DNA of 63,294 nucleotides, the filler included, from Anaerolineae bacterium (GTDB taxonomy: Bacteria > Chloroflexota > Anaerolineae > Epilineales > Epilineaceae), in NCBI GenBank assembly GCA_029262755.1. It is 6 parts of 6 records of this genome, joined end to end, with 100 filler letters (N's around TTAATTAATTAA, not from the genome) between each part and the next. Parts side by side here need not be neighbours in the genome. Positions count along the whole stretch, not along the records: positions 1 to 20,786 come from JAJCYU010000212.1; positions 20,887 to 37,867 come from JAJCYU010000215.1; positions 37,968 to 48,965 come from JAJCYU010000216.1; positions 49,066 to 57,357 come from JAJCYU010000221.1; 2 more parts are not named here. One strand, written 5' to 3'. The number at the start of each line of letters is the position of its first letter. Position 1 is the first letter of the stretch. The translations under genes and the position numbers were made by a program. Below the pieces are notes generated by a model. That model had not been told where the DNA came from and searched no databases. It saw only the letters and a program-made list of their open reading frames with translations. Positions 1,105 through 56,896 of this stretch are shown here, piece by piece.

Positions 1105-2634
1105 ATGAGGCGCAAGGATTGGGGCAGGAGTGCGGGGCTAGGAATCGGTATGGGTCTGGCGTTGATCGGCCTCACCGCTCGCACGGGGACGCACGTATCG
1201 GCCCGTCCCGATGCACAAGAAAGCGGGATCACGATGGGCGGGGTGTCCGGCATCCAAGTGCAGAATCTAGATCCGGATCGTTCGGCCACCATCGCCTCGC
1301 GACTGTTCCCGCAACTCGGCGGTCAGCAAGCGGTCACGCTCACCTCGCCGAACGTGCCGGTGGATAGCGCCGCGAACGTGTACTTGGGCGAGAGACGTAC
1401 GGAGCGCGGCTTGTTCTCCGGCGTCGTGAGCTCCGACCGGCCCATCGCAGCCATCGCGCGCACGGATTGGCACGAGCGGGGTGCCGCTGCGATCTACGCA
1501 AACGTCCGGGATGGAACGCATGTCGTCGTGCCGCTGATCATGATCGACTACGCGGACTCGACCTCCGCCGTCACGATCCAGAACGCCGACGTGACGCAGG
1601 CGGTGGACGTGCGGATCGAGCTCCGATCCGCGACGTCGCCGGACGTGGTGCTGGAGCGAGGGATCAAGATCGCTGGTGGCGCCTCCGTGACGCTGGACAT
1701 GGCGCAGGATCCGGCGTTCGCGAGCGTCGAGTCCAATACGCCCCTAGGTTTCCTTGGATCGCTGCACGTGATGGCGGCCACGGCCGTCGGCGTGCAGAGC
1801 TTTCTCGACATCGGCAGGACGCAGCAGGCCGTGAGCGGCTTCGCGGGCGTGCCGATGGAGCAGGCGGCGAGCCGACTGTATGCGCCGTTGATTCGGCGCC
1901 GAGCCTACGGCTACGACACGGGCATTGCCGTTTCGAATCCGGGCGCGGAGAGCGTGAACGTAACGGTCCGGTACACCGGCAGCGGCGGCACGGGATGGAG
2001 CCAATGCGAGGGGCGCGCCTTTGTTCACGGCCCCGTCGAGATCGCGGGCGGTTCGAGCACGGTGTTCTACCAAGGACCGGGCGGCGGGAGCGGTTTGCCG
2101 GATCGCTGCGTCGGCTCTGCCGTGATCGAGGCGACCGGCGACGTGCTCGCTGTCGTGCATGACTCGCTGAACTTCACCGAATCTGCCGCGGCCTACAACG
2201 CCGTGCCGTTCGCGGAGGGCGGCACGCGCGTCGCCTTGCCGCTGATCCGTCGGCAGCACGGCGCCCGTCATCGGCTGACGACGGGCATCCAGGTGATGAA
2301 CATCGGCGACGAAGTCGCCAACGTGACCCTCCACATGCGCAACGATCAAGGACGCGCGCTCACCGAATGCGGCCGGGCATGCGGAGCGGCAATCGGACCC
2401 AGCGCATCGCATACGTACTATCTTGGTAGTGGGGGGCTCACCGCACTGCCCATCAACACCTTCGGTTCGGCGGTCATCACCGCGGACCAACCGATCATCG
2501 TCCTCGTGGTGGACGCGAGTGCGTCCGGAACGATCGACATGGCCTCGTATCTGGGGATGCCCGCCCATCAAGGAGCGGAGAGCATCGGTCTGCCGATCTT
2601 GTATAGTGCGCCACCGGTGATGCAGGGGCCGTAG
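1105..2634 (+). CDS. S-layer-like secreted repeat protein, paralog 2, with C-terminal LP tag
   Basis: GGAGG RBS before ATG 1105. Signal-peptide-like N-terminus, four GI/AVxVxN repeats, C-terminal SIGLPIL. Confidence 0.8.
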   Translation: MRRKDWGRSAGLGIGMGLALIGLTARTGTHVSARPDAQESGITMGGVSGIQVQNLDPDRSATIASRLFPQLGGQQAVTLTSPNVPVDSAANVYLGERRTERGLFSGVVSSDRPIAAIARTDWHERGAAAIYANVRDGTHVVVPLIMIDYADSTSAVTIQNADVTQAVDVRIELRSATSPDVVLERGIKIAGGASVTLDMAQDPAFASVESNTPLGFLGSLHVMAATAVGVQSFLDIGRTQQAVSGFAGVPMEQAASRLYAPLIRRRAYGYDTGIAVSNPGAESVNVTVRYTGSGGTGWSQCEGRAFVHGPVEIAGGSSTVFYQGPGGGSGLPDRCVGSAVIEATGDVLAVVHDSLNFTESAAAYNAVPFAEGGTRVALPLIRRQHGARHRLTTGIQVMNIGDEVANVTLHMRNDQGRALTECGRACGAAIGPSASHTYYLGSGGLTALPINTFGSAVITADQPIIVLVVDASASGTIDMASYLGMPAHQGAESIGLPILYSAPPVMQGP

Positions 2635-2749
2635 CGTGACACGATGCGCGTGCGCAGTAGGCCGCGCTTCTGGGGATTCCGCAAGGGAGATGCTTCCAAT
2701 GAACTCGCGATCAACCGCTCGTCGTAGTCGACTTTGGCGCGTTTCGGTC

Positions 2750-2826
2750 GGCGCGAACGGCCTCGACGTGATGCCGGCCGGCTCCTATGGCTCGGCCGTG
2801 ATCACCTCGGATGAGCCCATCGCTCT
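2750..2826 (+). pseudogene. Fragment of an S-layer-like paralog
   Basis: Encodes GANGLDVMPAGSYGSAVITSDEPIAL, matching GANGLTVMPSGTYGSAVVTSDQDIVV of paralog 1. No intact gene surrounds it. Confidence 0.7.
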
Positions 2827-2933: not shown

Positions 2934-4475
2934 ATGAATTGTCGATCTTGGGGCGCATTGCTGCTCATCGCGGCTGGATTTGGACGCGTGCCGGGGGGGC
3001 CATCCAACCCACTGTCCGCCGACGCGCTTGAGCCCATCCTGACCCAAGAGCCGAGTACTTCGGGAGTGATCACGCATAACGATGGATTCTTGGGAAGTGC
3101 GGTTATCACCTATACCGCCTATTCCCCCGTCATCGGCCAGAGATGGGTTCGTTGGCGAAGGATGCACCCGAGCGCACCGTTGTCATTGTTCTTGCCTGAC
3201 TGGTCTGTGCTTCCGAAGGGGCCAGTTAGCGTTCGACTCGAATCCGATCTTCCTGCCACATCCATCGTCAGAACGGATTGGCCACGGGCCGGCGGCGCTT
3301 CTATGTACGGGAATGCTATTCCTGACCGGGAGCTTCATGTGCCGCTCGTCCTGATCGAGGATGGAGGTGCGCATACCGTGATCTCCGTGCAGAACGCCTC
3401 CCGCGATGTTGCCGCGCACGTTGAGTTGATTCTGCTGGCCGCTGAAGGTGCCATGCCGGCAACCACGCTGCGTATTGAGATTGACGCTGGCGCCTCGGTG
3501 GACGTCGATACACGCAATCGGCCATTCTCGAATAGCCTACCGGACACCGGTGGCCGGTTTGTTGGAGCCATGAAGGTCACGTCTGACACTCCCGTGGCTG
3601 TTGCAGCGCAAATCGTTCTTGACCAAGATGCGAGTGCGGCGTTCGGTTACGCCGGTGTGGGGCGTTCTCAGGCTGCTCGTCGGCTGTTCGCACCTCTTAT
3701 CCGGCGCAGATTCCGCGGATACGACACCGGAATTGCGGTCGTGAACCCACAGAGTCATCCAGTGGAGGTGTCGGTCATCTATCGGGGATCGCACGCCGGC
3801 GGCGTGAGCGAATGCGCCGGAACGATTCTCCGGCATGGCCCGGCGGCCATGCCGGCGCACTCCACCAGGATTTTCTACCAGGGACCTGGAGGCGGCAGTG
3901 GACTCCCTGACGCATGTGTGGGCTCGGCGGAGATTGAAGCGTCGGACGCCATTGTTGCCGTCGTGAACGATACGCTGAACTTCGGGGAACATAGCGCCGC
4001 GTACGAGGCGATCCCGGCGACGGGTGGCGGCACAACCGTGTTGCTGCCGCTGATACGGCGGCGTCATCTTGATTCGTTGCAGCTCACTTCCGGAATTCAG
4101 GTCATGAACTTGGGACCTGAACGCGCTCTAGTGCAATTGCGCTTACTCGGCACTGGCGTAGAGCAATTTCCCGTGTGCGGCCGAGCGTGCATCGCTCACA
4201 TCCCTCCTCTTGAAAGCCGTGTCTTCTACCCTGGCGCGCATGGGGTCGAATCGCTTGCGGAGGGTGCACGAGGCATAGGTATCATCGACTCGAATCAGCC
4301 GGTGGCTGTAATCGTCAACGAGGCAAGCGAGTCGGGAGCTGGGGACATGGCGACTTACGTTGGAGCCACGTCGGGGAGGCTTGGAGCGGATCTAGGACGT
4401 TGTCCCGAAGGCGGTGGCTGGCCGACAGGGATTGGTTGCCAGTTTCTTCCAAGCCTCGGAAATGGTGGCAGGTAG
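2934..4475 (+). CDS. S-layer-like secreted repeat protein, paralog 3 (diverged)
   Basis: Shares LFAPLIRRRFRGYDTGIAVVNP, FYQGPGGGSGLPDACVGSA and TSGIQVMN with the other paralogs. Ends QFLPSLGNGGR. Confidence 0.8.
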   Translation: MNCRSWGALLLIAAGFGRVPGGPSNPLSADALEPILTQEPSTSGVITHNDGFLGSAVITYTAYSPVIGQRWVRWRRMHPSAPLSLFLPDWSVLPKGPVSVRLESDLPATSIVRTDWPRAGGASMYGNAIPDRELHVPLVLIEDGGAHTVISVQNASRDVAAHVELILLAAEGAMPATTLRIEIDAGASVDVDTRNRPFSNSLPDTGGRFVGAMKVTSDTPVAVAAQIVLDQDASAAFGYAGVGRSQAARRLFAPLIRRRFRGYDTGIAVVNPQSHPVEVSVIYRGSHAGGVSECAGTILRHGPAAMPAHSTRIFYQGPGGGSGLPDACVGSAEIEASDAIVAVVNDTLNFGEHSAAYEAIPATGGGTTVLLPLIRRRHLDSLQLTSGIQVMNLGPERALVQLRLLGTGVEQFPVCGRACIAHIPPLESRVFYPGAHGVESLAEGARGIGIIDSNQPVAVIVNEASESGAGDMATYVGATSGRLGADLGRCPEGGGWPTGIGCQFLPSLGNGGR

Positions 4476-10608: not shown

Positions 10609-11988
10609 ATGGTTGGTTCCCCGACGACCCCGACCCGCCGATTCGCGTGGGCCATGGTGGCTACGAGCATGTTGATCGGCGCCGGCCTCATCGGCGGGCG
10701 ATCACTCGTTTCGCGATCGGTCGATGGGAGCTTCGCGGGCTGGGTTTCCGCGGCGCCGTCCGCCCAAGGCGAGGCCTCGTGCCGATGGCGTGTGCTCGAG
10801 CGTGGACCCACGCGCACCCAACACACCTTGGTCGCCCTGCCCGGCGCCGACCTCGTTGCATTCGCCGGTGGAGAGCGCGCTGCGGGACAGGCCACGGTGC
10901 TGGCCGACTTGCAGCGACTACGCGGCAGCGACGGTCAAGGCGCGTGGAGCGCCATGACCGCGACGGGGGCCGGGCCCGCAGCACGGGCGCAGCACGTCTC
11001 GGTCGTGCATGACGAGCCGGGCGGTGATGCGACGATGATCACCTACGGCGGCGTGGACGAGCTCGTGAGCTTCGGCGGCGGTGGCGGCGGAACGTTCACG
11101 TGGCGCTCGCCGCTGGTTGCGGGCGGGGCATCGGCCGCCGGCCGACGTGGCGCATTCGCGCCGCTCGGTCTTGTGGGCGACGCGTTCACGTTGGCGATCA
11201 CCCAGGGCGGAGCGAGCTGGTCGCCGCTTTCGATTCCCGGCCGCCCCCTGGCTGACGCCGCGGCCGTATGGTGGCCGAGTGCGGAATCGATGGTGGTCAT
11301 CGGCGGCCGGCTGAGCGAGGAGGCCACATCGGCCACAGGTGCGCGGCAGCTGATCAGCCTCGGCGGCTCCGAGCCGAGCGTCGAGGTCGTGGAGGACCCG
11401 GGCGGCCCGGCGCCGCGCTACGCGCTTAGCGCCGTGTTCGATAGCGAGCGCGAGCGCCTCTTGATCTTCGGTGGCACGCGCAACTGGCAGAACGGCCGCA
11501 ACGACGTCTGGTCGCTCGACCTCTCCCGCGGTTGGGGCGACGCGACGTGGACCCCGGTGGACGCCTTCGGCCGACCGCCGGCGCGCCGCTTCGATCACGT
11601 GGCGGCCTGGCATCCCGGGCTAAACGCCATGCTGGTCTTCGGCGGGACCCGTAACGGCAGTGATTCTCTAGACGATCTGTGGGCCCTGGACATGTCGGGC
11701 GAACGCCCCACATGGCGTGAGCTCGACCCAGAGGGCCCGACACCCGCGGGCGTCGCAGGCGCAGCCGCGGCGTGGAGCGATGGCGCCGAAGCCATGATCC
11801 TCTACGGCGGCACGACCGGCAGCACGTCGCAGCGCGACGCCTGGGCGCTCGATTGCTCGGTGACGGGCGGTCCATCGCCGACCGTGCCGGTGCCGACGGT
11901 GCCCGTGCCGGCCACGCCGACGCCGGGCGCGACCGCAACGCGGCCTGCGCCGAGCGGCGCGATCCACCTGCCGTGGGGTCAGCGCTAG
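10609..11988 (+). CDS. Secreted Kelch-repeat beta-propeller with PT linker and LP tag
   Basis: Repeated FGG/YGG...W..L..P.R..H Kelch motifs. PT-rich tail ending AIHLPWGQR. Confidence 0.85.
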   Translation: MVGSPTTPTRRFAWAMVATSMLIGAGLIGGRSLVSRSVDGSFAGWVSAAPSAQGEASCRWRVLERGPTRTQHTLVALPGADLVAFAGGERAAGQATVLADLQRLRGSDGQGAWSAMTATGAGPAARAQHVSVVHDEPGGDATMITYGGVDELVSFGGGGGGTFTWRSPLVAGGASAAGRRGAFAPLGLVGDAFTLAITQGGASWSPLSIPGRPLADAAAVWWPSAESMVVIGGRLSEEATSATGARQLISLGGSEPSVEVVEDPGGPAPRYALSAVFDSERERLLIFGGTRNWQNGRNDVWSLDLSRGWGDATWTPVDAFGRPPARRFDHVAAWHPGLNAMLVFGGTRNGSDSLDDLWALDMSGERPTWRELDPEGPTPAGVAGAAAAWSDGAEAMILYGGTTGSTSQRDAWALDCSVTGGPSPTVPVPTVPVPATPTPGATATRPAPSGAIHLPWGQR

Positions 11989-12243: not shown

Positions 12244-12399
12244 GAAGCCGGGTATACTGGCATCGGGCCGTCCCTGCGCCGGTTGCGCCCTCCATCTCTA
12301 ATCCCCGCGAGCCATCCGGCGCCTGTGCGTGCGAGGTCGTCTAGCGGCTGTTCCGCTCTTCCATCGACACCGCACGTGGAACCGCGAAGGATGCACGCC

Positions 12400-13815
12400 A
12401 TGAAACGCACGCGCACGCCGAACGTCCGGTGGCTGTTCGCCATTCCTGTACTGGCCTTGCTCGGCTCGACGGCCTTTGGTGGCGGAGCGGATGCGGCGCC
12501 GGCTGCCCAAGCCGGCGTCAGTTGCGCTTGGGAGCGCTTGGATCGGGGCGAAGATCGCGAGCAGCATTCGTTGGTGCCGTTGCCCGGCGTCGGCGTGCTC
12601 GCCTACGGCGGCGTACAGCGCACCTCGCGCGGCGCGACAATCCAGGACGACGTGCACACGCTGGATCTCGTGGGGAGCCCCGGCGGCGCGTGGTCGGTCC
12701 TCAACGCCGGCGGTTCGTCCGCCGGTAAACGCGCGGAGCACATTGCCGTACTGCGCCCACGAGACGGCGGTGCTTCACAGGTCGTCGTGTACGGCGGCGT
12801 GGACGCGTTGGAGTCGATTGGTGGCGGCGGAGGCGGCACCTTTACCTGGCGCTCGCCGCTGACCGCAGGGGGCGGCGTTGCACTCAGCCGCCTGGGCACA
12901 TTCGCGCCGCTCGGTGTCGTGCGCAAGGGCTTCCGTTTGGATGTCGACGCCCAGGGTGGCGCCTGGACGGCTTTCGATCCGGAAGGGACCAGCGTGGCTC
13001 TGGCCGACGCCGCCGCGATCTACTGGCCTGCCGAGGATGCGCTGCTCGTGCACGGAGGACGCACCAAGGAGGAGGTCACCTCCGTCACGAACGACCTCCA
13101 TCTGGTCACCTTGGGCGATTCGCCGACCTGGAGCAAGCTCGATGTCGCGGGCGGCCCCACGGACCGCTTCGCGCATTCGGCCATCTACGACGCGGCGGGC
13201 GACCGGATGGTGCTGTTCGGTGGAACGCGCGACTGGAAAGCGGGTCTGGACGATGTGTATGCGCTCGATCTGTCCGGTGGCGTGGACGGCCTGGCCTGGA
13301 CGAAGCTCGAGCCGACAGGCCGCGCGCCGTCTCGACGTTTCGACCATGCGGCGGCGTGGCATCCCACCCTGCGCTGGATGGTCGTGTTCGGCGGGACCCG
13401 GGACGGCAACCGCGCGCTTTCCGACGCGTTCGTGCTCGACGTGAGTACGGACACGCCGACGTGGGCCCCCCTCGACGCTTCGGGCGCCTCCCCCGCGGCA
13501 TCGCGAGGCCCGGCCGCCGCCTACAGCGCGGACAGCGACGCCCTCGTGTTCTTCGGCGGTCAGGACCGTGGCACGACGCGCCGCGATAGCTGGGCGCTGC
13601 GCTGCACGATCCCCGCGACACCCACGCCGACCGAGGCGCCGATCACCGCGACGCCGACGCCGGAACCGGCCACGGAAACGCCGACCCCGGAGCCGGCGAC
13701 CGAGACGCCGACCGACGTCCCAGCTACGAACACGCCGCAGCCGCCGACCGAAACGCCGACACCCGAGCCGCCTCCCGCGATCTACCTTCCTTGGGGAGAG
13801 CGCGAAGCGGGCTGA
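12400..13815 (+). CDS. Secreted Kelch-repeat beta-propeller paralog with PT linker and LP tag
   Basis: Signal peptide ending ADA, Kelch repeats, TPTPEPATE repeats, ends AIYLPWGEREAG. Confidence 0.87.
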   Translation: MKRTRTPNVRWLFAIPVLALLGSTAFGGGADAAPAAQAGVSCAWERLDRGEDREQHSLVPLPGVGVLAYGGVQRTSRGATIQDDVHTLDLVGSPGGAWSVLNAGGSSAGKRAEHIAVLRPRDGGASQVVVYGGVDALESIGGGGGGTFTWRSPLTAGGGVALSRLGTFAPLGVVRKGFRLDVDAQGGAWTAFDPEGTSVALADAAAIYWPAEDALLVHGGRTKEEVTSVTNDLHLVTLGDSPTWSKLDVAGGPTDRFAHSAIYDAAGDRMVLFGGTRDWKAGLDDVYALDLSGGVDGLAWTKLEPTGRAPSRRFDHAAAWHPTLRWMVVFGGTRDGNRALSDAFVLDVSTDTPTWAPLDASGASPAASRGPAAAYSADSDALVFFGGQDRGTTRRDSWALRCTIPATPTPTEAPITATPTPEPATETPTPEPATETPTDVPATNTPQPPTETPTPEPPPAIYLPWGEREAG

Positions 13816-16900: not shown

Positions 16901-17944
16901 TTCGAGCGCTGCCACGCTGCCCTCCCAGAGGCGGAGGCGAACGCGGGTCGTGCTGTTGGCCGGGTCGAGGGCGAGTGCCATGCGTCCGACGAGCGGCCAG
17001 TCGAGAGCGGGGCCGAGCTGCGCGCGGCCGACGTTCAGGCCGATCACGCCCACGACCAGGCTGCCCGCGACGAGCACGGTCGCGAGCGCGTGGCGCGTGC
17101 GCCCCGCGCGGGCCGCGGCGGCGAGCGCGGCGACGACGGCGCCCGCCGCGAGGCCGAGCACCGGCCCCCGCGAGCCGGCCAGGACGAGGGCCCACGTGGC
17201 TGCGACGAGGGTTGCGCTCCATGCGGCGAGGGCCGCGTCCCAACGCCGATCGGCGCGCCGGGCCGCGGTCCACGCACGCGCGGTGCCCCAGACAACGAAG
17301 GGCAGTGCCATCGCGAGGTGGGCTGCAAAGAGCACGCTGCTACCGGAGGGGCCGGAGACGCGGGTGACGACATCGCCCAACCACGGTAGGGGGTCAAGAC
17401 GGAAGCGTTGGAGGATGCCGTACAGCGCGGCCGGCCACGCGGAAGCAGCGATGGCGGTGGCCAGCGCCAGGCCCGAATGCCTGCGGGCGAAGGCCAACGC
17501 GGCGAACAGGGCGAGGAGCGCCGTGGTGGTCAACAGCCCCTGGCCGCGATCGGCCGTGCCGAGCAGGCTGGTGGCGGGCGCGACGGATAGCGCGGTCGCG
17601 AGGGCCGCGACGAGCCAGACGGCCAGCGCGGCGCGGACCACGGGGTGGGCGGGGAGCGGGGGGAGAGCCCAAAAATGGTGAAGACGTGCGCGAATAGACG
17701 AGTCGATCGGGTTCCGCTCGTCTCGACGGGACGACCGGGTCGCCAGCAAGCCAAGAGCGGCCACCGCGCCGAAGAGTCGTAGCAGCCGGGCCTTCTCGGG
17801 CTCAAAGATGACGTCCGTGAAGACCACGAAGTGCAGCGGAACGGCGAGCACCGCCGCGAGCGCCGTGGCGCGGGCGAGCTCGCGGCCGGCGGGACGGAAG
17901 GTGGGCGCGGGATTCGACGTTGATAGCGGAGAGTAAGCGTTCAC
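13985..17944 (-). CDS. O-antigen ligase / O-oligosaccharyltransferase-like polytopic membrane protein with C-terminal TPR repeats
   Basis: Many TM helices. YGILQ, AGSRG, RLRLW and GTGPET...DRAHNLMLDTLLTEGLLG (Wzy_C-type) motifs. TPR-like helices at the C-terminus. Confidence 0.82.
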   Translation of the reverse strand: MNAYSPLSTSNPAPTFRPAGRELARATALAAVLAVPLHFVVFTDVIFEPEKARLLRLFGAVAALGLLATRSSRRDERNPIDSSIRARLHHFWALPPLPAHPVVRAALAVWLVAALATALSVAPATSLLGTADRGQGLLTTTALLALFAALAFARRHSGLALATAIAASAWPAALYGILQRFRLDPLPWLGDVVTRVSGPSGSSVLFAAHLAMALPFVVWGTARAWTAARRADRRWDAALAAWSATLVAATWALVLAGSRGPVLGLAAGAVVAALAAAARAGRTRHALATVLVAGSLVVGVIGLNVGRAQLGPALDWPLVGRMALALDPANSTTRVRLRLWEGSVAALESRGAMRWLVGTGPETMPLTWAPFYPSILAHDEPRGIVPDRAHNLMLDTLLTEGLLGLLAFVAFLTLALGAALRQLGLLPHHRDRGDRGHREGRHDRATWLVAWLGGGLAAAAFALIADGPRLAGPAAGLGATTGLALWLAAAAWRRARSPHTSWDRPPDAGDVGDAGNTGAVGTTGTGGTASAASAASAATSMDAVPGAKPADVGFALAAVAALITAWIELQVGFAVTSTRLLLWLIAGSLVAVESRRRTGTVDGAITLPDGPGSSARADAAPQAVPAAPTDSEASETATSPATSAPSATSAPSATSAPSATSATPATPATPATPATPATPAIDATRDGAFTSVPDRATSARSLDPAFAALVVGAALIFGFARPGLVGGGAATVAVLLVASVSGAWAIAAIGRHRLVAVLGVSAVLSAQLVGQGLIAGWTVTRVGDAVAGAIAQLGLFLLVVLGATVWYAGREAALALGAEGDLQTRLDPPDSFTPGKTEGARDETPASQRAAYLGDSTAHSTAHSATTEHSTVQSLVHPAVHSTVQEPSTSHSLSSEHSSVTSHLTSIAHAISTATIRACTARAAAIAVLAAVLALPVTVGHTAADALYKEGLLVWESPVMGLSAEGESGRAEAFLDRAVERYEAAVRFAPNEPRYRIRIGFAEDTRAVLLDERLARALAQAGLSAAEDEYDPDLLDGYANELAERRDAAFAAAITRFEEASLRAGRRGEVQGVGAGGPATGGVSSWRTLSSIALEQSETGKTNFVSGTLFDTTADRTPGSPAPILASARAYRLWGDLTREPERRSMRLASAAAAYARATFAAPTWPEVRNEAAVVVLLANQPNAAIDAARESIALDPYYNAPWKTLALALTERGGADDAAATVDAWARYFDDPRNAGDVDAIRARLGALLRVGTHEEAVLVALDLVVLTPGDARAHADLATAYDGAGDRDRALEAARAAAALAPGDPQIAALLKGLEGR
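15904..16016. repeat. In-frame tandem repeats: 9 bp x6 and 18 bp x3
   Basis: TCGCGGGAG x6 (ATP repeats), then GACGTCGCAGAGGGCGC[GC] x3 (SATSAP). Confidence 0.9.
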
Positions 17945-42848: not shown

Positions 42849-42945
42849 CGTGGGCGTTCCCCCCTTGTTTGGGCGTTGTGGGATCCGTTGCTGCGAGCGA
42901 TGCCATCGGTCCATGTCGAGCACGCCCTGAATCCGAGGACACGCT

Positions 42946-42989
42946 GCGACCGTTCGAAGGGACGCGAGCGACCGTTCGAAGGGACGCGA
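42946..42989. repeat. 22-bp perfect direct repeat x2, intergenic
   Basis: GCGACCGTTCGAAGGGACGCGA twice, followed by a degenerate third start. Confidence 0.8.
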
Positions 42990-43028
42990 TCGACCGGGCT
43001 CCAAGGAAATCGCTTCGACGCCGCGCAG

Positions 43029-45188
43029 CTACGGCCCCCGCTTTGCCCACGGCAGCCACACGCGCCCGGGCGGATCGAGCCACCAGCCGGCGTTCGGTGG
43101 CCGGATCGTGCCGAGATCGAAGGCCTGGAGTGCGCCCTGGCTCAGGTTCCAGCCCAGACCGCCGGCGGCCTGGAGGCTGCATCCGGATCGGGCGTCGCCG
43201 ATCGAGAATTGGCCGGCGTCGCGCGGATGGTCCAGGCGTGAAATGTCCAGCAGCGAGACACTCGCGCCGAGGCGGGGGTGAATCCAGCAGGCCCATGCAC
43301 GATCGCCGTCCAAAGCGACGTCGGCGATGGTCGAGGGCAGATCGAGGATCGCGCGCTGCCGCACCGTATGCGGAGCCGGGGCGCTGATGAAGGTCAGCAC
43401 TGTGGCCTGACCGAGGGCGAGCGTTGTGCCATCCACATCCCACACGTTGCCGATGGCGGTCGGCACGGTGAAGACGTTTGTGGCGCGCAGGGTGTTCGCG
43501 CCATCTAAGACGTAGCCGGTGAACTGCTCGGGCCCGACGAACGACGCCCTCTGTACCCAAACATGGTTGTCTGTGAGCTCGATGTTGGCTAGCCGAAAGT
43601 TGGGGGAAGGGGGCGGAATCTTGTGGGGGATGGCCGATTGGCTGCCGTCTGTGTTCGGTTGCACGTAGGGGATGCCTTCGATCGACCACAGCATCCAGTT
43701 TTCCGTAAGGCTCCATGGCGTGACGATGGCCTGATCCTGCGTGGATCGCCCGATTCGGTCACCGACTACGCCTTCCCCAAGATGGCGCGTCTGCCAGACT
43801 TTCGTTAGCGACGTGCGCGGGGCAATCGCGACCAAGTCGGCCCCGGCCGCCATGGCGCGCACCTCCCCGACAGGCTCCGCCGTCTCTTCCTGGCTCGCAC
43901 CCGCGAAACGAGCTTCGAATTGAGAGCCCACCTTGTCGAGGAAGTGCAGCTTGAGCCCCGTGTCGATGGCCCAAGCGCCTTCGGATGTAGCTTGGAATCG
44001 GTCGAACTTCCCCGTGCCCAGGTCATCGGCGTCCGCCATGAGCACGGACTGCGGAGGATCGTCGGGACCATGCCACACGATGCCGCCCATCTGCATCTCG
44101 TCGGCCATCAGCACGCGATCGCCGATGCGCAGAAGGCGCACCTGGTCATAAACGTCGTTGGGCAGGATCCGGCGCGTGACGGATTCCTCGCGGCGTGAGT
44201 CCAGGTCCTGTCGCCGCAGCTGTCCTTCCCGGTCCATTCGCCACAGGTAGCGTCCGTCCCAATGCAGATCGCCGAGATAGCGTTCTCCTTCGGGCGTGCG
44301 AACCTCGACCATTTGCGAGGGGACTTCCGGTTCGGGTTCGTAGTCGACGACAATCACAGGCGCACCGGGCGACGTGCGCGGGGGGCCTATGACCGCACGA
44401 TCGCCGACGACACTCAGAAGGTCGTAGGTCCCTGCAAGGTTGACCCTTTCCAGAAACGAAGGGTCCTTAGACGTGCCAGCTGTCATCCACACCAAGGCCG
44501 AAGGTCCATTCAAACCGGGTGTGTGCGGTAGCAAAATGGCGGCGCCGGGTCCGCCTTCCGCCACCGCACCGATGAAGTGGGGCTCCACCAGACCCGACCC
44601 CTCGAGCGATACCCGACGCGGTCGACTCGGACGCTCCGGATCCGACACATCGACCCGGAACAGACCTCGAATGCCCATGGCAAGCCACGCTTCATTCCCC
44701 ACCCAGGTAACCCCGAAACTCGACCCCACGGACATGATGGACCGCAGCTCGATGTCGCGCGGATCCTGCATATCCAGCACGTAGAGACGGGAGCCCGCGG
44801 ACGCCAGCACCCGACCGTCGCGCGCTGCTATCGAGACGATCGGCGCGCCGAGGGGTATCGAGGTGCCCAACGGACGTCCGTCGTCCGGGAGGGCCGGATC
44901 GAAGACGTGGATGCGCGAGTGGACCGCGACGTAGGCGCGTGCGCCGTCGGTCGCGACGGCGCCGATCTCGCCGCCGTACTCCACGACGGGACGCAATGTG
45001 TCGGCCGGCATGGGCTGGGTCGGCGCGGCGGCGGTCAAGGGGTCGGCGGGTCTACTCGAGCCAACAAGCGCCGCGACGAAAACGGCCGCGGCAACCGAGC
45101 GAAGGTTGCGAGCAGTGCCGTGCCCAAGGCGACCTTGACCCGGCAGTCTCGGAGTCGCGGAAAAGGTACGCGCCTGCGATTCGATCAT
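43029..45188 (-). CDS. Secreted LVIVD-like beta-propeller protein with LP tag
   Basis: Colinear paralog of the 40692 gene. Ends GRVWLPWAKRGP. Start uncertain (45188 or 45269). Confidence 0.78.
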   Translation of the reverse strand: MIESQARTFSATPRLPGQGRLGHGTARNLRSVAAAVFVAALVGSSRPADPLTAAAPTQPMPADTLRPVVEYGGEIGAVATDGARAYVAVHSRIHVFDPALPDDGRPLGTSIPLGAPIVSIAARDGRVLASAGSRLYVLDMQDPRDIELRSIMSVGSSFGVTWVGNEAWLAMGIRGLFRVDVSDPERPSRPRRVSLEGSGLVEPHFIGAVAEGGPGAAILLPHTPGLNGPSALVWMTAGTSKDPSFLERVNLAGTYDLLSVVGDRAVIGPPRTSPGAPVIVVDYEPEPEVPSQMVEVRTPEGERYLGDLHWDGRYLWRMDREGQLRRQDLDSRREESVTRRILPNDVYDQVRLLRIGDRVLMADEMQMGGIVWHGPDDPPQSVLMADADDLGTGKFDRFQATSEGAWAIDTGLKLHFLDKVGSQFEARFAGASQEETAEPVGEVRAMAAGADLVAIAPRTSLTKVWQTRHLGEGVVGDRIGRSTQDQAIVTPWSLTENWMLWSIEGIPYVQPNTDGSQSAIPHKIPPPSPNFRLANIELTDNHVWVQRASFVGPEQFTGYVLDGANTLRATNVFTVPTAIGNVWDVDGTTLALGQATVLTFISAPAPHTVRQRAILDLPSTIADVALDGDRAWACWIHPRLGASVSLLDISRLDHPRDAGQFSIGDARSGCSLQAAGGLGWNLSQGALQAFDLGTIRPPNAGWWLDPPGRVWLPWAKRGP

Positions 45189-45751
45189 CGTTGGTGTGGG
45201 TTCCCTGGGGGCGTCTTGCACGCCAATGAAGCGCGTCGACGTTCGATCCGTCCAGCGGCCTTGATGCACTCAGCCGCGCATTGATCGATGCAATCGATGC
45301 ATCGATTCGCCACGGTAGCGCGCTGAAGACGAAGACGCGATGTGGCCCGGCGAGGGGACGCGGACGATGCAGGGCTCGCGAGCGATCCGTCGGGCACTGC
45401 GCAAGGAACGCGACGTGTTGTCGGCGACGGTGGCTTGGGGCACGGCTCGATCTAGGGATCGCACGCCATCAGGCGCACGGGCACGCCGAAAAGGCGGCTG
45501 CTCGATATCTGACCGGCCGTCAGGCTGCGACCGGACGGAATGTTCGCGTACGCTCGCGGCAGGGCTCAGTGAAGCCAGACGTTACAAGCCTTGCCGCTAC
45601 CGGTCGCCACAGGAGACGCCGCGACTGCGGCCGCACGCCCACGCACGATCGGGCACGGCCCGACGGAAGACGAGATGGGCGTTGGTCCAATTCGGCGGTC
45701 AGCAGCGCGGGCGATAAGGCTGTGCACCGAGCAGCGGAGTTGCGCGGCGAA

Positions 45752-46279: not shown

Positions 46280-48691
46280 TCATGGAGCGGTCGCCGCCTC
46301 CAATAACGGCAGGAAGATCCGCAATAGGCGCCCTTCACCGGGGGGCCGGCCGCCGACGCGCGGTGCGTACACCTGAACAGCGCCATCGGAGACGATCCAG
46401 GCAAGGCCGTCGTTTGCGTGAAGGCCCGCGGCGTCGGCGGCGAGCGTTCCGCGCGCGGCTTCCACGGGGTGCGCCGGGTCGCTCAGATCGATCCAGGCCA
46501 GCGAACGGTCGCCCATGCTGCGCGCGGTCGGCGCGGTCACCACCCACGCGGCCGCGCCGGCTCCGGCCTCGCCATCGGCGAGCGCGATCTCCAGCACCGG
46601 GTCGAGTAGGTCCAAGGTGCCAAGCACCCGAGCCTCCGCCCCAGCGCCCACGGGGACGTCGGCGACGACGAGATCGCGGCCGATACCAAGCGCCACGCGG
46701 TCGCCGGCGTGACCGATGCTTGCGGCGGGCATAACGCCGGCTGCGACCGATAGCAACGTGGTCAGACGATCGGCGCTCTCCCTGCGCAGGTCACTCGTGG
46801 CCAGGCCGCAGCCGAACGGCAGGAAGCACAGCAGATGGAGCCGATGGTCTTCCAGGGCAAGGGCGGACGGGCCCGAGCCGTGGAGCGAGACGAGCACCTC
46901 TGCGACTCCCCCTTTGCCGTCCATCTGCAGGATCAGGTCCTGGTCGTCGGACACGTTGACGGCGAGCAGGCCGTCGTCGGCGTCCCACAGCCGTGGCCGC
47001 GTGACGTTGGGGTCGCCCGTGATCGGAGGCGCGATCGTAGCTACGAAGGTGAGGCCGCGGCCCGCGTCGGCGTCACCGTTGGGCGGCGGCTGTGCAACAT
47101 CCGTGTACTGTCGGATTGCTCCTTCCGAGACAACGTACACGTGCTCATCGTCCGCCACGACATCGATGACCTCGTTCGGCCCTTCTCCCGCGAGTTCGTG
47201 GGGCTCGTCCGGCGCGGTGCGCGGCGTCCAACGCAGCAGACCATCCGTGCCGCGCAGCCACGCCGTCTGATCGCCGAGGGCGATTTCTATCGCCGACCAT
47301 GCGCCGACATCGGGACCGTGGACGAGCCGCGTCCGTGCACCGAGCCACCACGTCCGTGTGGCGGATGCGATGAGCAACCGGTCGTCTACGGCCAATAGAG
47401 CGAGTAATTGCTGTGGATTCGCGCCGGCATCGGCATCGGCGGGCACGACGATCCGCGGACCGGAGCGGCTCGGGTCATCGGGATCGAGCACGCGAACGTA
47501 CTTGCCTGCGGACCAGCCGATGCCCGTTGCGCCCCAGGCGACCGCGGCGGCAGACTCCAGGTCCTCCGGAGGCGCGAATGGCTTGACCCGCGGCGACGCC
47601 AAGTCGCGGAAGTCTAGGATCCATCCCTCACGGTTGCCGGCGACGACCACGCGCGACCCGTAGGCGGCCGCATGGTTCGCGCAGCATCGCTCGAAGGTGC
47701 CGCGACTGCGCAGCTCGATCTCACCGTTTGCCTGCGGTCGCAACAACATCCACTCGCCGAGCATCGCGATGTTCGGGTCCGCCCCGTTCCACGATACGAG
47801 TACGAGCGCGCCGTCCGCAACCGGCACAACGTCGCGCAGCGTGGCACCGACCTGTTGCGCCGACGGGGCGTCGGGACGCCACGTCGGCAGGGGCACCGGC
47901 AGACGCGGTTTGCGCATGTCGAAGCGCTGGATCAGATCGCCGGCCGGCAGCCACGCTTCATCACCGACCCAGAGGACGCTCCGAGATAGCCGCCGAAGCG
48001 GGACGTCGGCGACAAGCAGAGGCATGCGGGTGATACTCGGACGGGCATTGTCCGTCCGAAGCTCGTACACGCGCAGGTGATAGCCACCGGCAAGCAGCCA
48101 CCGGCCGCGAACGGCGAGTCCCGTGATGGGAGCGCCGACGGCGGGCGTGACGCTCCCGAGATCGCCGAGAGTCGTCAGCGCGGGATCGAGCGTGACGATC
48201 CGCGAGTGGATGGCCGCGTAGACAGCCCCGTCGTCCGCGGCGAGACCGCGGATGCGGCCGCCGAGCTCCGCGATCACGGCGGGCTGCGAGGCCACGGGGA
48301 GCTGGGCGGCGTACGCCGAGGGGCGATCCGCGAGCGCGATGGTGGATTGGAATCCCGCGGGCGCCGGCGCGTCGAGCGGACGGTCGACCGTAGTGGCGAG
48401 CGTGATGGCGATCGTGAGGACGGTTGCGATCGAGAAGGCGGTGGCGATCGTAAAGGCGGTGGCGACCGCGGGGACGGTGACGACCGCGCGGACGGCGATC
48501 ACTGCGGCGCGACGCACGCGCGCGCTATGAGCGCTCGCTCTCGGTTTACCGTGCAGCAACACGACCGGCGGTCCCGCGCCGGCGTCAAGGTCGGATAGGC
48601 ATGCCTTGGGCGCACATACGTACCGATGCTCGTACGGAAGTCCCGAGGACTTCGAGTGGGGCGTGCGGGAAGCGGCCGTAGGCGAGGGCAT
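46280..48691 (-). CDS. Secreted beta-propeller paralog with LP tag (start uncertain, possibly near 48520)
   Basis: ELGGRIRGLAADDGAVYAAIHSRI family motif, IDLSDP blade, ends RIFLPLLEAATAP. Confidence 0.72.
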   Translation of the reverse strand: MPSPTAASRTPHSKSSGLPYEHRYVCAPKACLSDLDAGAGPPVVLLHGKPRASAHSARVRRAAVIAVRAVVTVPAVATAFTIATAFSIATVLTIAITLATTVDRPLDAPAPAGFQSTIALADRPSAYAAQLPVASQPAVIAELGGRIRGLAADDGAVYAAIHSRIVTLDPALTTLGDLGSVTPAVGAPITGLAVRGRWLLAGGYHLRVYELRTDNARPSITRMPLLVADVPLRRLSRSVLWVGDEAWLPAGDLIQRFDMRKPRLPVPLPTWRPDAPSAQQVGATLRDVVPVADGALVLVSWNGADPNIAMLGEWMLLRPQANGEIELRSRGTFERCCANHAAAYGSRVVVAGNREGWILDFRDLASPRVKPFAPPEDLESAAAVAWGATGIGWSAGKYVRVLDPDDPSRSGPRIVVPADADAGANPQQLLALLAVDDRLLIASATRTWWLGARTRLVHGPDVGAWSAIEIALGDQTAWLRGTDGLLRWTPRTAPDEPHELAGEGPNEVIDVVADDEHVYVVSEGAIRQYTDVAQPPPNGDADAGRGLTFVATIAPPITGDPNVTRPRLWDADDGLLAVNVSDDQDLILQMDGKGGVAEVLVSLHGSGPSALALEDHRLHLLCFLPFGCGLATSDLRRESADRLTTLLSVAAGVMPAASIGHAGDRVALGIGRDLVVADVPVGAGAEARVLGTLDLLDPVLEIALADGEAGAGAAAWVVTAPTARSMGDRSLAWIDLSDPAHPVEAARGTLAADAAGLHANDGLAWIVSDGAVQVYAPRVGGRPPGEGRLLRIFLPLLEAATAP

Positions 48692-48965
48692 GGGCGGCTC
48701 CGTGGTCGGGACGGGACGCGAGGCTCGGGCGAATTGGCTCGGGCGGCGAGCGAGGAGTCGCATAGAGATCGCAGCCCACATCGCGCCTGCGCTTCGCTGC
48801 GCCGATGGTATCGGAACGCACGCGCCTTCGTGTCGCGTAGCCCGGTTGATGACAATGGCCGCGATCGCCCGGGTTCTAGATTACCGCTCTCCATGCCGGA
48901 CGCGCCGCAACACTTCCCCGGCCGCGATGAGCGCCACAGACACCATCAGCAGGTTCGCGACCAGA

Positions 48966-52493: not shown

Positions 52494-53741
52494 CTAGAGC
52501 TCGTGGTTAGCCAACACGAGCGGCATGTAGTTGTAGAACTTCGCGGCGGGCGTCGGCGGATCCGGATCCGGATTGGACGGACGCTCGGTCCACTCGATGG
52601 TGCTGCTGCCGCAGTCGAAGGTCAGGGCGTCGGGGAATCCCTCAGCCAAGTAGTCGCCTTCGGCCTTGATCATGTCGGAACCTTCCGTTGCGCCGGTGAA
52701 GGTCAGCTTGACCTCACCCGTCGCGTCGGACGTGCCCGTGATCGTCTCGCCCGCGTGCGGGCCGCTATCCACCACGATGGTGACTTCCGCGTCCGGTGCA
52801 GCCTTGCCGTCGGCACGGACCAACGTCGTGAGCGTCACGCTGTCGCCGATGTACAACGCGGTCGAGGCGGGCGTCATCCCGCAGGACATGACCGGCGCAA
52901 CTGGTTCCGGCGTTTCGACTATGGGCGGATCGCCCATGATGGCCTTGACTGCGCCGGCGTAGTCGCGGCCCTCATCGGTCTCAAACTCGACCATCGCGAC
53001 CATCTGCAGCTTGCCGAAGTCCGTTGCAACCTCGGTGGTGAACTCGGACTCAAGGCGAACCTTCTGGCCGGGCTCGACGACGTCCTCGAAGTCCATCCAG
53101 TCGATGATGCGCATCAGCTTGTGGAGGTGGATCGCCTCTGGATCGTTATGCTCGTAGCCGATGATCCCAAGCGAACCGCCGTTCTCCCACGGGTCGAACA
53201 CGTCCTTGCCTGTGTTCTCTACATCGACCGTGACGGTGACCTTGTTGAGAGCCGAGCGCTTGAACCATGCGTCGACCTTCATCGTCGGGGCCATGGCTTC
53301 GCCCTCGCTGATCCAATCGTTGAACAAACCGCGCCATGCGTCTGGCGACGTACCGCCGGGGGCGCCGGCCTGGTTTGCGAACTTGCCGCCCTGGGCGATC
53401 ATGAACGGCAATGTGCTCGCGCTGGGGATGACCTCACGCAGGCGGTTCATACGCGTTCGCGTATTGGGCGCCTGCTGCGTGCCGTTGGGGTCCGTGGGGT
53501 CCACGTTCGATTCAATGAAGAACACGTTGTCGACACCATCTCGCTCGAATTCCTGCTCCATCTGCCTGATGACCGGACCGGCCGTCGCGCAGATGCCTCA
53601 GGTGGAGCGTCCGTACATCTCGATAATGACCAGCGACTTCTCGCTCTGCGTAGCCGGCGACGCGGCGGTCGGGGAGGTCAAAACCATCCCCCCGATCATC
53701 GCAACAGCCAAGCCGGCAGCGAGTGCCCGCATATGGCGCAT
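52494..53741 (-). CDS. Secreted thioredoxin-fold (Omp28-like) selenoprotein candidate with UxxC, Ig-like (Big_1-like) domain and LP-type tag
   Basis: AGGAGG RBS and signal peptide. EMYGRST-TGA-GIC reads through in frame into ORF 52494..53561. The neighbouring paralog has EMFGRTD-C-IVC. A hairpin follows the TGA. Confidence 0.85.
53559..53595 (-). promoter_or_regulatory. Candidate bacterial SECIS hairpin
   Basis: Starts 2 nt 3' of the TGA (53598-53600). Outer stem CATCTGC/GCAGATG, inner GAC-GG/CC-G-GTC pairing, G-containing apical loop. Confidence 0.6.
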
Positions 53742-53895
53742 GAACCATCCTCCTTGCATAGTGCTACCCGTCGACGCGTCAATGATCCTCCGCAAATCTT
53801 TTGGGGAGGCCATTGGGCAGTGTACGGCAGCAGATTCGGACTGTCAACGGGGTAGAACGGCCTAACCGCAGGGAACGTGACCCTATCGCGTAGTC

Positions 53896-54106: not shown

Positions 54107-54994
54107 CTACCTTCTGACCAAGGGCAGATGGATTTCGGCGACCGGCGTTTCACCCGGCTCCCGTGTAGGCACGGGGGTCGGCGCGGGCGTGGGTGCGTCG
54201 CGATCAAGAACGGCTACCGCACCTTGGGCTACGTCCCATCGTCCATCGGGCAACACGCGCTCCACGACGGCAAGAATCTGCAGCGTAGAAAGATCCGTTC
54301 CTTCGTCCACCGTGACATCGCCAACCGTGCTCACCGACGCACCGGGTGCGATTCGCTCGGCAAGCGGCAATCGACCAACGCCCGCGGCGTAGCGGCCGGC
54401 GTGGAGGACGCGTTCCGCGCGAATCGCGAACATCCAAATGCCACCGCCGGCTCTGGGGTCGATATCGCTCTCGCCGGTGTTCTCCACATTGACGGACGCC
54501 TGGAAGGTGCTCGCACCCGTCGGAGCCCACGAAGCGGTCACGCGCGCAGTGGGTTCTCCCTGCGCGGCACGGTCAATCATGGCCCGGTAGGCAGCCTGAT
54601 AGTCACCGTCGTCCACCGTTCCAAACGCCGTCTCGAGCCCGCCGTTGAGCAGGACCAAGGGCAATGGCGCGCGAGAGACGCCCATGAGGCGGAACCAGCG
54701 CCGGCGCCGCTCGGCCATGCCAAGATTCCCACTGTTGTCGGAATCGTGCTCGAAGATGACGACGCGACGGCCCTCCGCTTCGTATTGCGCTACCAGCGCG
54801 TCCATGGCAGGACCAGCATGCTCCTCGCACACGATGCAGTCCGTTCGCCCGAACATCTCGAGCACCACCAGTCGTTCTTGACGTTGGCTCGTCGGAGCGG
54901 CGATCGCAGGTCGACCGAGTTGCATAGCCGCCATGACCAGCAGCACGGCTCCCAATACGGTTCGTGCGAGTGGTCGGGCAAAGAATTCAGTCAT
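54107..54994 (-). CDS. Secreted thioredoxin-fold (Omp28-like) CxxC protein with LP tag
   Basis: Signal peptide, LVVLEMFGRTDCIVC, PLPLVLLNGG cis-Pro-type motif, PT linker, ends EIHLPLVRR. Confidence 0.82.
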   Translation of the reverse strand: MTEFFARPLARTVLGAVLLVMAAMQLGRPAIAAPTSQRQERLVVLEMFGRTDCIVCEEHAGPAMDALVAQYEAEGRRVVIFEHDSDNSGNLGMAERRRRWFRLMGVSRAPLPLVLLNGGLETAFGTVDDGDYQAAYRAMIDRAAQGEPTARVTASWAPTGASTFQASVNVENTGESDIDPRAGGGIWMFAIRAERVLHAGRYAAGVGRLPLAERIAPGASVSTVGDVTVDEGTDLSTLQILAVVERVLPDGRWDVAQGAVAVLDRDAPTPAPTPVPTREPGETPVAEIHLPLVRR

Positions 54995-55342
54995 GAGCTC
55001 TGATCCTTGAAGTTCCATCCGAGTATGATTGCTTTCCGCAAGGAGGCCGCTCTGGCGGCATTGGGCCAACGCAGTATCACGCTTGGCCCGGGCACCATGT
55101 CACCCGAGACGATGTCACCCAAGTCGGCAGGGCGCAACGAAGGACCGAAAGCACACGCCCAAACGTGGTTCGTTCGGTCTTGGTTTGATGTCGACAGCTC
55201 TGTGATGCCGACACGATGGCCGGCCGCGGAGACGGAGCTTCCACGGGCGTAGCGACTGCGTGCGTGTCTGTTTCCGAAAACGGGCGAATCCGAGAGTGCG
55301 TACGGCGAAGACGTTGCCGACTAGCGGCACCTCTCAGGCCTA

Positions 55343-56896
55343 TCAACGACGTGTGCCCGATTCGTCCTTGGCTGCTAGGAGCATCAAGACCAATCCCTGG
55401 CCGTAGGCTTGCGGCCGGCTGCGGTCGATGCGCCCGTATATCTCGACCCCTACGTCGCGGCTCGGCACCCCGGTGCCGGCGGAAACCTCCGTCACCGTCC
55501 CGTCCGAAGCGATCCGGCGCAGTACCCCGCCGTAGGCCTGGTCGGCAAAGACGAGATACTCGCGTTCGAGATGGCCGTCGACAACGGCGCGGTACAGCGC
55601 AGCTGCAATGGCGGCGCTGCCCGAGGTCTCGAGGTAGAAGTCCGGACGATCCAACACCGTTCGCCACATGCCGCTGTTGCGGTCTTGCACGCGCACGAGG
55701 GCGCGCAGATGGCGTTGGTGCAGCGCGACCAAGGTGGCGCGATCCGGATGATCGAACGGCAGGTGTCGCAGCACCTCGGACGTGGCGAGCGCTGCCCAAC
55801 CGTTGCCTCGCGCCCAGTACGCGCCGCTGATCGGATCCCCGGCCGCGATGTCCCATCCGTGGAACCACAGGCCGGTGATCGGATCCTGCAGCACGGCTGC
55901 GTGCAACAGGATTTCGCGCGCCGCGGCATCCAGCGCATCGCGTCGATCGAAACGCGCTCCGTATTCGGCGAGCAGCGGTACGCTCATGAACAACGTGTCG
56001 TCCCAGAGTTGTCCCGGACGATGGGCCAGCGCCCCACCGGCACGTGGCGCATCCGACAGCAGCCAACGCACGCCGCGTTCCGCCAGATTCACGTGGCGAT
56101 CCGCGGGCCGTCGTCCCGCCGCAGCGTCGTCCGCCGCGAGGCGTAGCGCGACCCACGCAGGTGCCGTGTGATTCGGATGGCTGAAGACTCCGGCGGCGCC
56201 CGCGGCCAGGCCCTCGTCGAGCCACGCGCCCACGGCGCCGCGCAGATCGTCGGCATCGCCGGCGCCTGCGTCGACCGCGGCCAACACGCCGATCATGCCC
56301 ACCCCGCCCTTCCAGGCCCACTCCCCAACATGCGTCTCCGCGCCCGTCGACAGATCCATGGCCAACAGACGTCGCGCGACTCGGTCGAGCAAGGGGTCGG
56401 AGCGCAGGACCATCGGCAGGAACAAGCGCGGATCGTGCGCCGCTGCCGTCGGCGTTCGGCTGGGCGCCGGCATCGCGGTGACCGACACCGGTGCGGTCGC
56501 CGTGACCGTGGAGGTGAGCGACGTCGTGCGCGTTGCCGTCGACGCAGGTGCGGTGCCGGGCCCAGGCTCCACGCTCGGTGTCACGGCGGGGGTCGCCGAG
56601 GTGGACACGGTGGCGGTGGGGCCCTCCGTCGCGGACCCGGTCGCTGTCGGCGATGTCGTCGCGGAAGCGGTCACGGTAACGGTACCCGTGGCGGTGACCG
56701 TCGACGTGGCGGTCGACGTGGCGGTGACCGTGGCCGTCGCCGCCGCGGTCGCCGTGCTCGTTGCGGTCGCTGTGACGGTTCCGACCGAAATCGGGGTCCG
56801 CGTTGACGTCGGGGTAGCCGTCGGCGACTGGCCACGCGCCGGGTGGGTCAGCCCGCGCGCGGCGAGCGGAACGAGTAGCAGCGCAAGCAACGCCAT
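55343..56896 (-). CDS. GH88/GH105 unsaturated (rhamno)galacturonyl/glucuronyl hydrolase with an N-terminal Thr-rich linker
   Basis: QLWDDTLFM, TGLWFHGW, YWARGNGW, ETSGSA and YGQG motifs. Signal peptide and T/A-rich region. Start uncertain. Confidence 0.87.
   Translation of the reverse strand: MALLALLLVPLAARGLTHPARGQSPTATPTSTRTPISVGTVTATATSTATAAATATVTATSTATSTVTATGTVTVTASATTSPTATGSATEGPTATVSTSATPAVTPSVEPGPGTAPASTATRTTSLTSTVTATAPVSVTAMPAPSRTPTAAAHDPRLFLPMVLRSDPLLDRVARRLLAMDLSTGAETHVGEWAWKGGVGMIGVLAAVDAGAGDADDLRGAVGAWLDEGLAAGAAGVFSHPNHTAPAWVALRLAADDAAAGRRPADRHVNLAERGVRWLLSDAPRAGGALAHRPGQLWDDTLFMSVPLLAEYGARFDRRDALDAAAREILLHAAVLQDPITGLWFHGWDIAAGDPISGAYWARGNGWAALATSEVLRHLPFDHPDRATLVALHQRHLRALVRVQDRNSGMWRTVLDRPDFYLETSGSAAIAAALYRAVVDGHLEREYLVFADQAYGGVLRRIASDGTVTEVSAGTGVPSRDVGVEIYGRIDRSRPQAYGQGLVLMLLAAKDESGTRR

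Follow-up and report, generated by a model that had tools for sequence, protein, structure and literature searches.

In LPXTG/sortase and PEP-CTERM/exosortase systems, exported proteins of many unrelated kinds share a short motif close to their C-terminus. In cohesin-dockerin display, the principle of the cellulosome, many enzymes have on a Pro/Thr linker a module whose position is free, and are held by it on a surface scaffold without a covalent bond; this module, the dockerin, folds into a calcium-binding domain of ~70 residues. Chaperone-usher pili, type V pili and archaeal filaments use an incomplete β-sandwich that is completed by a strand of another polypeptide, and in donor-strand pili this strand comes from the next subunit, building the filament. 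The subject of this report is a short motif, the YLP-box, on exported proteins of an Anaerolineae bacterium (Chloroflexota; GenBank assembly GCA_029262755.1), together with its candidate receptor, a secreted protein made of four ASRAH domains. Both are encoded in one window (the whole stretch of DNA that was analysed, 63,294 nucleotides), which consists of six unjoined contigs of the draft genome with N spacers between them. The reading that we consider best, and think rather probable, is that YLP-box proteins dock as cargo on a surface scaffold by donor-strand complementation. Judged by analogy, such a mechanism would work like donor-strand pili and cohesin-dockerin display and be a member of neither.

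The likenesses and differences can be stated briefly. As in donor-strand pilins, a β-sandwich (here domain 1 of the four) is short of one strand, but the acceptor has no donor strand of its own, and the strand would be supplied by any of hundreds of cargo proteins with no relation to one another. As in cohesin-dockerin display, a position-independent module sits on Pro/Thr linkers and is proposed to dock non-covalently to a scaffold, but the tag is ~8 residues long and not a folded domain, and no cohesin is among the fold matches listed for the four-domain protein. Unlike LPXTG and PEP-CTERM signals, the YLP-box is accompanied by no transmembrane (TM) helix or basic cluster, occurs in internal and N-proximal copies, and shows no sign of cleavage. 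On the receptor side, the ASRAH superfamily (TM1070, 1NC7; ASRT, 2II7; Pfam DUF5719; PMC2739507) shares the β-sandwich (Z 13-15), an invariant Asn past the second strand and four domains per chain; the protein described here differs in standing alone, with neither amidase nor lipobox, in having a Pro-centred first strand instead of Trp, and in the missing strand of domain 1. ASRAH domains are predicted sugar binders, and tetrads of them are fused to amidases in Chloroflexi, according to PMC2739507; the passages drawn on describe no stand-alone, strand-lacking form, but the supplements of this paper and of PMC7332563 may list such proteins.

The tag itself is already known. NCBIfam catalogues it as the YLP-box putative sorting motif in two models, NF050076 (sort_motif_YLP) and NF053834 (ultrashort_CTERM), whose names and one-line descriptions mention no receptor. 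A literature search, with most subscription papers outside its reach, listed no publication on the tag or on its pairing with a four-domain protein; its matches to YLP-box, both accessions, YLPLV and ultrashort CTERM were unrelated peptide strings only. What is new, as far as these searches go, is the pairing with a strand-lacking ASRAH tetrad. Copies in this genome share with the models the short h-[YFWH]-L-P-h-h-x-R/K motif and its placement on exported Chloroflexota proteins, but are often Trp-rich. None of the 11 C-terminal tails that a sequence-only reading of the window had singled out matches either model (HMMER filters drop weak hits on models as short as these), so that the window's tags are divergent, Trp-rich YLP-boxes by consensus and not by cut-off. 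An internal copy at 56402-56425 scores 13.3 bits on NF050076, for which the cut-off is 15.

With our own codon-model open reading frame caller, 3477 proteins are predicted in the genome, 3175 of them with a complete 3' end. A strict scan of the last 22 residues of the latter finds the motif in 129; after removal of seven look-alikes in membrane or cytoplasmic proteins, the remaining 122 were the seed set of a position-specific scoring matrix (PSSM). The consensus of these 122 tags is [IVLA]-[YWFH]-[LM]-P-[WLIYFVM]-[AVGLTS]-x-R: the L/M-P dipeptide is invariant, the +4 residue is basic, and Trp occupies position -2 in 29 and position +1 in 37. Between 4 and 18 residues follow the Pro, and none of these extensions forms a membrane helix, as the sequence-only reading had said. 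Genome-wide, the motif lies mostly at C-termini, where its density is 25-35 times the internal density. The C-terminal tag is present on 99 of 499 signal-peptide-like, 19 of 1179 cytoplasmic-like, 4 of 319 polytopic and 0 of 59 lipobox-like proteins (classes assigned by a hydropathy rule, not by SignalP); most of the 19 resemble proteins with mis-called or truncated starts. C-terminal density and class enrichment together reject a chance origin: in this Chloroflexota genome the motif is real. The sequence-only reading, which took the motif for a modular surface-attachment signal, had advised a test for its enrichment on SignalP-positive non-lipoproteins and would have been abandoned had cytoplasmic C-termini carried it equally often; the enrichment, like the NCBI label, speaks for that idea, and attachment itself is what we infer from it.

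The motif is not purely C-terminal, as had been supposed. There are 88 strong internal copies (34 before VWA domains, 21 right behind signal peptides, 17 that follow Pro/Thr linkers other than these, and 16 elsewhere), one of them in the window at the position just given, and when strong internal copies are included the PSSM counts ~268 carriers, most of them secreted non-lipoproteins, among the 3477 predicted proteins. In the 34 proteins in which the tag stands directly ahead of a VWA-like domain (for example C185:952-2778 and C262:1960-4335), a Cys often follows a few residues past the tag, with a second Cys at the end of the domain; tag and VWA domain behave as a single mobile module.

No receptor was known to the sequence-only reading. 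A candidate is now found in the window itself, and three of the 11 listed tails sit on its paralogues (strand positions below are those of an AlphaFold model of P0003, a close orthologue):

3..848 (window ~1-848), + strand: main four-domain ASRAH protein, 3' half, from the end of domain 2 through domain 4, overlapping contig C190; no tail after domain 4
147..170, + strand: main protein, domain 3, tag-like first strand LYAPLIRK (strand E254-266)
501..524, + strand: main protein, domain 4, tag-like first strand VALPLARR (strand E372-382)
1105..2634, + strand: four-domain paralogue 1 (P0015), tail IGLPILYS at 2584-2607, Tyr-to-Pro spacing 15
2934..4475, + strand: four-domain paralogue 2, with a degenerate domain 1 and a weak tail, QFLPSLGN, at 4440-4463, PSSM -4.9
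18091..19611, + strand: four-domain paralogue 3 (P0001), truncated tail VALP at 19597-19608; Pfam DUF5719, 27.5 bits (cut-off 26.2)

Each of these four proteins consists of four repeats, and the tag pattern recurs inside all of them. The main gene is split between contigs: its 5' half, encoding a signal peptide and a strand-lacking domain 1, lies on C190, the reverse end of which overlaps the start of C212 by 32 nt. A second copy of its 3' end, at C59:15-269, is 95.5% identical to window 580-847 and is followed by a methyltransferase-like gene; the existence of two near-identical copies may explain the break in assembly. In codon bias toward high expression the 3' half of the main gene ranks 10th and the 5' half 173rd of 2841 genes, and the paralogues at 1105-2634 and 18091-19611 rank 2390th and 2394th (the reference being six genes, one of them a false pick).

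The feature on which the argument turns is the missing first strand of domain 1. When 190 four-domain units are compared, a loose form of the first-strand pattern stands ahead of domain 2 in 161 of them, ahead of domain 3 in 173 and ahead of domain 4 in 146, but ahead of domain 1 in 26, the last being mostly signal peptides or linkers with a few real strands. A further set of 120 orthologues, more distant ones, includes 119 that show four bodies with a short end, and repeat 1 comes directly behind the signal peptide. Since domain 1 starts there without a first strand, it has an open slot. Orthologues are 430-520 aa long, a length taken up by the signal peptide and four bodies, with no amidase and no lipobox; the main orthologues stop within ~10 residues of the last strand and have no spare donor strand. 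The first strands of the distant orthologues read T-T/K-V/L/F-Y-L-P-L-V-M-K/R-N. On the tag PSSM, 73 of 357 first strands score at least 5, and none of 119 segments before domain 1 and none of 119 control windows does so. Trp is not among the common first-strand residues, so that the strand-1 Trp of ASRAH domains is not seen, and in domain 1 the strand is absent altogether. Domain 1 is the most conserved body (entropy 1.81 vs 2.01-2.17), and Asn ends strand 2 in 113-119 of 119 sequences in every domain.

By residue couplings the first strand goes with the body behind it (the top five include the pairs 7-101, 12-71 and 6-74). In the P0003 model (predicted local distance difference test score, pLDDT, 93; predicted template modelling score 0.89) long first strands occur only in domains 2-4. 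Assignment of the first strand to the preceding domain was rejected on the couplings, this model and fold comparison. The fold matches of the four-domain protein are 1NC7 (Z 13.4, root-mean-square deviation 3.1, 113 residues aligned) and ASRT (Z 8.8); comparison with a model of a second protein, P0094, gives 1NC7 at Z 15.1, deviation 3.4 and 112 aligned. Foldseek on the whole model was uninformative except for 1NC7, the ESM Atlas returned unnamed clusters and one DUF5719/ASRT cluster, and NCBIfam holds no family for the four-domain protein.

P0094 is a natural relative in which four domains are followed by two tag-like tails. In its AlphaFold model the first tail, ERYVPWLAA, forms a nine-residue strand (495-503); pLDDT is 83 for this block, 63 for the linker before it, and below 50 for the second tail, which is disordered. 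In 26 of 50 structural matches to the model, one β-sandwich covers the range from ~46 to 500 with just 69-81 aligned residues, which corresponds to domain 1 plus the tail. None of the matches listed for a tail-less model has this pattern, and the target 8oxy covers domain 1 alone (47-112) with 61 residues vs 74. Thus completion of domain 1 by a tag-like tail within one chain is modelled, as read from secondary structure and alignment ranges rather than from coordinates.

A tag-like strand after domain 4 has been gained repeatedly among the paralogues. Tyr-to-Pro spacing of 15 is the commonest between internal domains (148 of 342), and the tail of the 1105 paralogue stands at exactly this distance. 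For this reason the tails at 2634 and 19611, and perhaps that at 4475, are probably the missing first strands of their own domain 1, self-completing rather than cargo tags. In some paralogues (P0107, P0165) the self-completing strand is accompanied by a second terminal tag. Elsewhere in the genome, whole four-domain units are fused to the C-terminus of unrelated secreted domains (C375:416-3634, C18:2337-6296), which suggests an alternative way of joining the layer.

Phylogenetic profiling, which the sequence-only reading had advised as a way to a partner, does point to the four-domain protein. Among 301 genomes of the phylum, a diverse profile matched 89, of which 63 were hand-sorted as having stand-alone forms (four of them split or partial). 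At least nine NF053834 matches occur in 25 of these 63 genomes, spanning six families, and in 0 of the other 238 (one row of which is the unpublished genome G263), a comparison limited by a cut at nine that was chosen with the data in view, by the manual sorting of the 63 and by the non-independence of related genomes. All 25 of the tag-richest genomes have the four-domain protein, and the 26 with other ASRAH-like matches only have 0-3 tag hits. In the top-scoring genomes that lack the protein most tag hits are noise in short frames, G232 excepted. Dropout of the gene from an assembly does occur: G141 lacks the protein, which 17 of the 18 genomes of its family have.

The mechanism that we favour, docking by donor-strand complementation, would run as follows. 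Cargo would first be exported, by Sec or Tat. Its YLP-box, a free donor β-strand, would then enter the slot of domain 1 on a separate molecule, the secreted stand-alone four-domain protein, which has first strands of the form h-x-h-P-h-h-x-K/R in domains 2-4 only, and would complete the sandwich non-covalently and with no cleavage; each four-domain unit would take a single cargo. The scaffold itself would probably be a structural component of the cell surface, abundant and glycosylated, and could assemble into a lattice. Lipoproteins and membrane proteins, having their own anchors, would do without the tag, and paralogues such as those at 1105-2634 and 18091-19611 would fill their own slot with their own tail strand. 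A wider proposal, which we put forward tentatively and at a little below even chances, is that many Chloroflexota build their outer protein layer from this glycosylated, one-strand-short ASRAH tetrad, and that its slot is a universal socket displaying any protein with a YLP-box at either end or between domains, without a sorting enzyme; ~8% of this genome's proteins would be so anchored. Cryo-tomography of Chloroflexota shows outer and lattice-like protein layers (PMC7332563, PMC13319060), one such lattice-like layer being that of Litorilinea aerophila (PMC13319060). With one protein and one slot named, both the make-up of the envelope and the mechanism of the YLP-box become testable. If the proposal is true, it describes an enzyme-free route of surface display and a natural split-fold pair of tag and catcher.

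A number of observations weigh against docking on this protein, in addition to the reservations attached to the co-occurrence count above. The relation is one-way: 38 of the 63 genomes with the protein have fewer than nine NF053834 matches. That model finds 10 copies above cut-off in this genome, vs ~268 by our own PSSM, and also fires in 10 of 14 control genomes. G265 shows no clear tag in ~313 kb of 4 Mb, and G232, an assembly 99% complete in 260 contigs, carries four C-terminal tags that look real and no four-domain match even at E 1. Tag and strand resemble each other modestly: a PSSM score of at least 10 is reached by 12 of 357 first strands, and domain 4 strands almost never match. One weaker coupling, 101-111, ties the first strand to the preceding body. 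In the completion model the tail shares a chain with the slot, in a relative from another organism. As to the layer, Chloroflexus aggregans and Roseiflexus castenholzii, which have outer and amorphous external layers, show no crystalline S-layer (PMC7332563); 'surface scaffold' is a safer term than 'S-layer'.

Some of these points would be expected if the tag had another receptor (a chaperone, an outer-layer translocon or a wall polymer), its likeness to the ASRAH first strand reflecting origin or convergence and the slot being filled by a neighbouring copy on assembly of the layer. G232, with tags and no detected four-domain gene, fits this account, as do the many genomes that have the protein and few tags, in which domain 1 lacks its strand although there is perhaps nothing to fill it; a small lipoprotein encoded beside the four-domain gene in 67 of 100 loci would be another possible partner. 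On the other hand, the main protein lacks any surplus strand that it could give to a neighbour, the paralogues' repeatedly acquired strands after domain 4 are tag-like and the model places such a strand in domain 1, and the tag-rich genomes have the protein without exception; we regard another receptor as unlikely, if deserving of some weight. Direct attachment of the tag to a glycan or lipid of the surface, or its self-association into β-aggregates, with the four-domain protein an unrelated sugar-binding lectin, would accord with a hydrophobic strand that has a basic end and with the sugar binding and amidase fusions of ASRAH tetrads cited above, but it leaves the conserved missing strand, the sequence match and the co-occurrence unexplained, and the genomes with only other ASRAH-like proteins are poor in tags. 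This we consider improbable. Slightly further down still we would place a cleaved or transpeptidated sorting signal of the LPXTG/PEP-CTERM kind, handled by some enzyme: the invariant L/M-P, the basic +4 residue, the mostly C-terminal location and the label 'putative sorting motif' all invite it, but the residues that follow the Pro vary from 4 to 18 in number and form no membrane helix, and C-terminal processing is unlikely because cleavage at the internal copies, those behind signal peptides and before VWA domains included, would split the protein.

Apart from the four-domain proteins, the tagged genes of the window are these (named relatives of window proteins are from Anaerolineae or Ardenticatenales):

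10609..11988, + strand: secreted Kelch β-propeller (Pfam) with Pro/Thr linker, YLP-box IHLPWGQR at 11962-11985, PSSM 21.9
12391..13815, + strand: secreted Kelch β-propeller (Pfam) with Pro/Thr linker, YLP-box IYLPWGER at 13780-13803, PSSM 24.9
38403..40622, - strand: secreted, no Pfam family, Pro/Thr linker, divergent tail LFLPRTYI at 38421-38444, PSSM -9.9
40692..43004, - strand: secreted, no Pfam family, YLP-box IWLPWAGR at 40701-40724, PSSM 27.2
43029..45269, - strand: paralogue of the 40692..43004 protein, YLP-box VWLPWAKR at 43038-43061, PSSM 24.4
46280..48781, - strand: secreted, no Pfam family, tail IFLPLLEA at 46295-46318, PSSM 7.3
52494..53759, - strand: secreted, Ig-like domain, in-frame TGA at 53598-53600, tail NYMPLVLA at 52509-52532, PSSM in the 3-7 class
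54107..55069, - strand: secreted CxxC protein with Pro/Thr linker, YLP-box IHLPLVRR at 54110-54133, PSSM 15.6
55343..56998, - strand: secreted GH88-family hydrolase (Pfam), internal YLP-box LFLPMVLR at 56402-56425, PSSM 20.1

All 11 strings of the sequence-only reading are present at the stops it gave, most followed by 4-12 further residues, and the ASPIC, TPR and 49788-51917 proteins lack a C-terminal motif, as it had claimed. Their mutual similarity holds in part. With the PSSM rebuilt without window seeds, five are strong (above 15: 11988, 13815, 40692, 43029 and 54107), three weak (3-7: 46280, 2634 and 52494) and three poor (19611 at 0.4, 4475 and 38403). Nor are all on unrelated folds, since those at 2634, 4475 and 19611 belong to one family; signal-peptide-like N-termini were also claimed for all, and that of the 52494 protein lies upstream of the in-frame TGA. 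The GH88-family hydrolase, absent from that list, has its YLP-box between a Thr-rich linker and the enzyme. A single gene cluster was considered and rejected: the 11 genes are spread over three of the unjoined contigs (C212, C216 and C221) and, given the composition of the window, are not one locus.

The TGA at 53598-53600 aligns with the first Cys of the CxxC in the paralogue ending at 54107, a hairpin lies downstream, and the genome has a tRNA-Sec; on this sequence evidence the 52494..53759 protein is a probable secreted selenoprotein with TGA as selenocysteine (UxxC).

The neighbourhood of four-domain genes is rich in glycosylation functions. In 100 loci the neighbours include a methyltransferase cluster in 72, glycosyltransferase family 4 in 55 and family 2 in 40 (single-linkage clusters, so that these counts may be inflated); linkage to glycosylation genes is an S-layer-like trait. 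Two genes of the window belong here:

13985..17944, - strand: O-antigen-ligase-like membrane protein with TPR repeats, between four-domain genes (Pfam Wzy_C, 39.2 bits, cut-off 31.7)
19898..20786 (cut by the contig end), + strand: class I methyltransferase (Pfam), of the kind adjoining the four-domain gene in many loci

The former is possibly a protein O-glycosylation enzyme. Two large glycosyltransferases at 21028-28202 (- strand), on a contig other than that of the four-domain genes, include one with WsaF domains, a type known from S-layer glycosylation. The small lipoprotein already mentioned (for example L103:6645-7286) has no Pfam family and lies directly downstream of the four-domain gene, within 500 bp in 63 of the 66 loci counted. 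It could anchor the scaffold in the membrane or act as its chaperone; this genome yielded no clear orthologue. One four-domain orthologue scores as CARDB too. In Litorilinea aerophila the protein A0A540VDF2 (FKZ61_15795) may be an orthologue, which is a lead and no more; the 80 loci listed by a scan of named genomes include none from that organism. Records with the titles Nitrospiria, Acidobacteriota, Gracilibacteria and Cellvibrionaceae (L069, L094, L099, L100) also contain four-domain genes, perhaps through transfer or mis-binning. No plasmid match was found.

A conserved C-terminal domain with an end like YHPLFN.LVF.A.C stands behind Pro/Thr linkers in P0073, P0077, P0108, P0142 and the unrelated C114:2433-4100, and is possibly a second anchoring module. 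Finally, the proteins encoded at 57458-63294 (contigs C233 and C240) differ strongly in make-up from those encoded elsewhere in the window and look low-GC-like, and these two contigs are probably contaminants of the bin.

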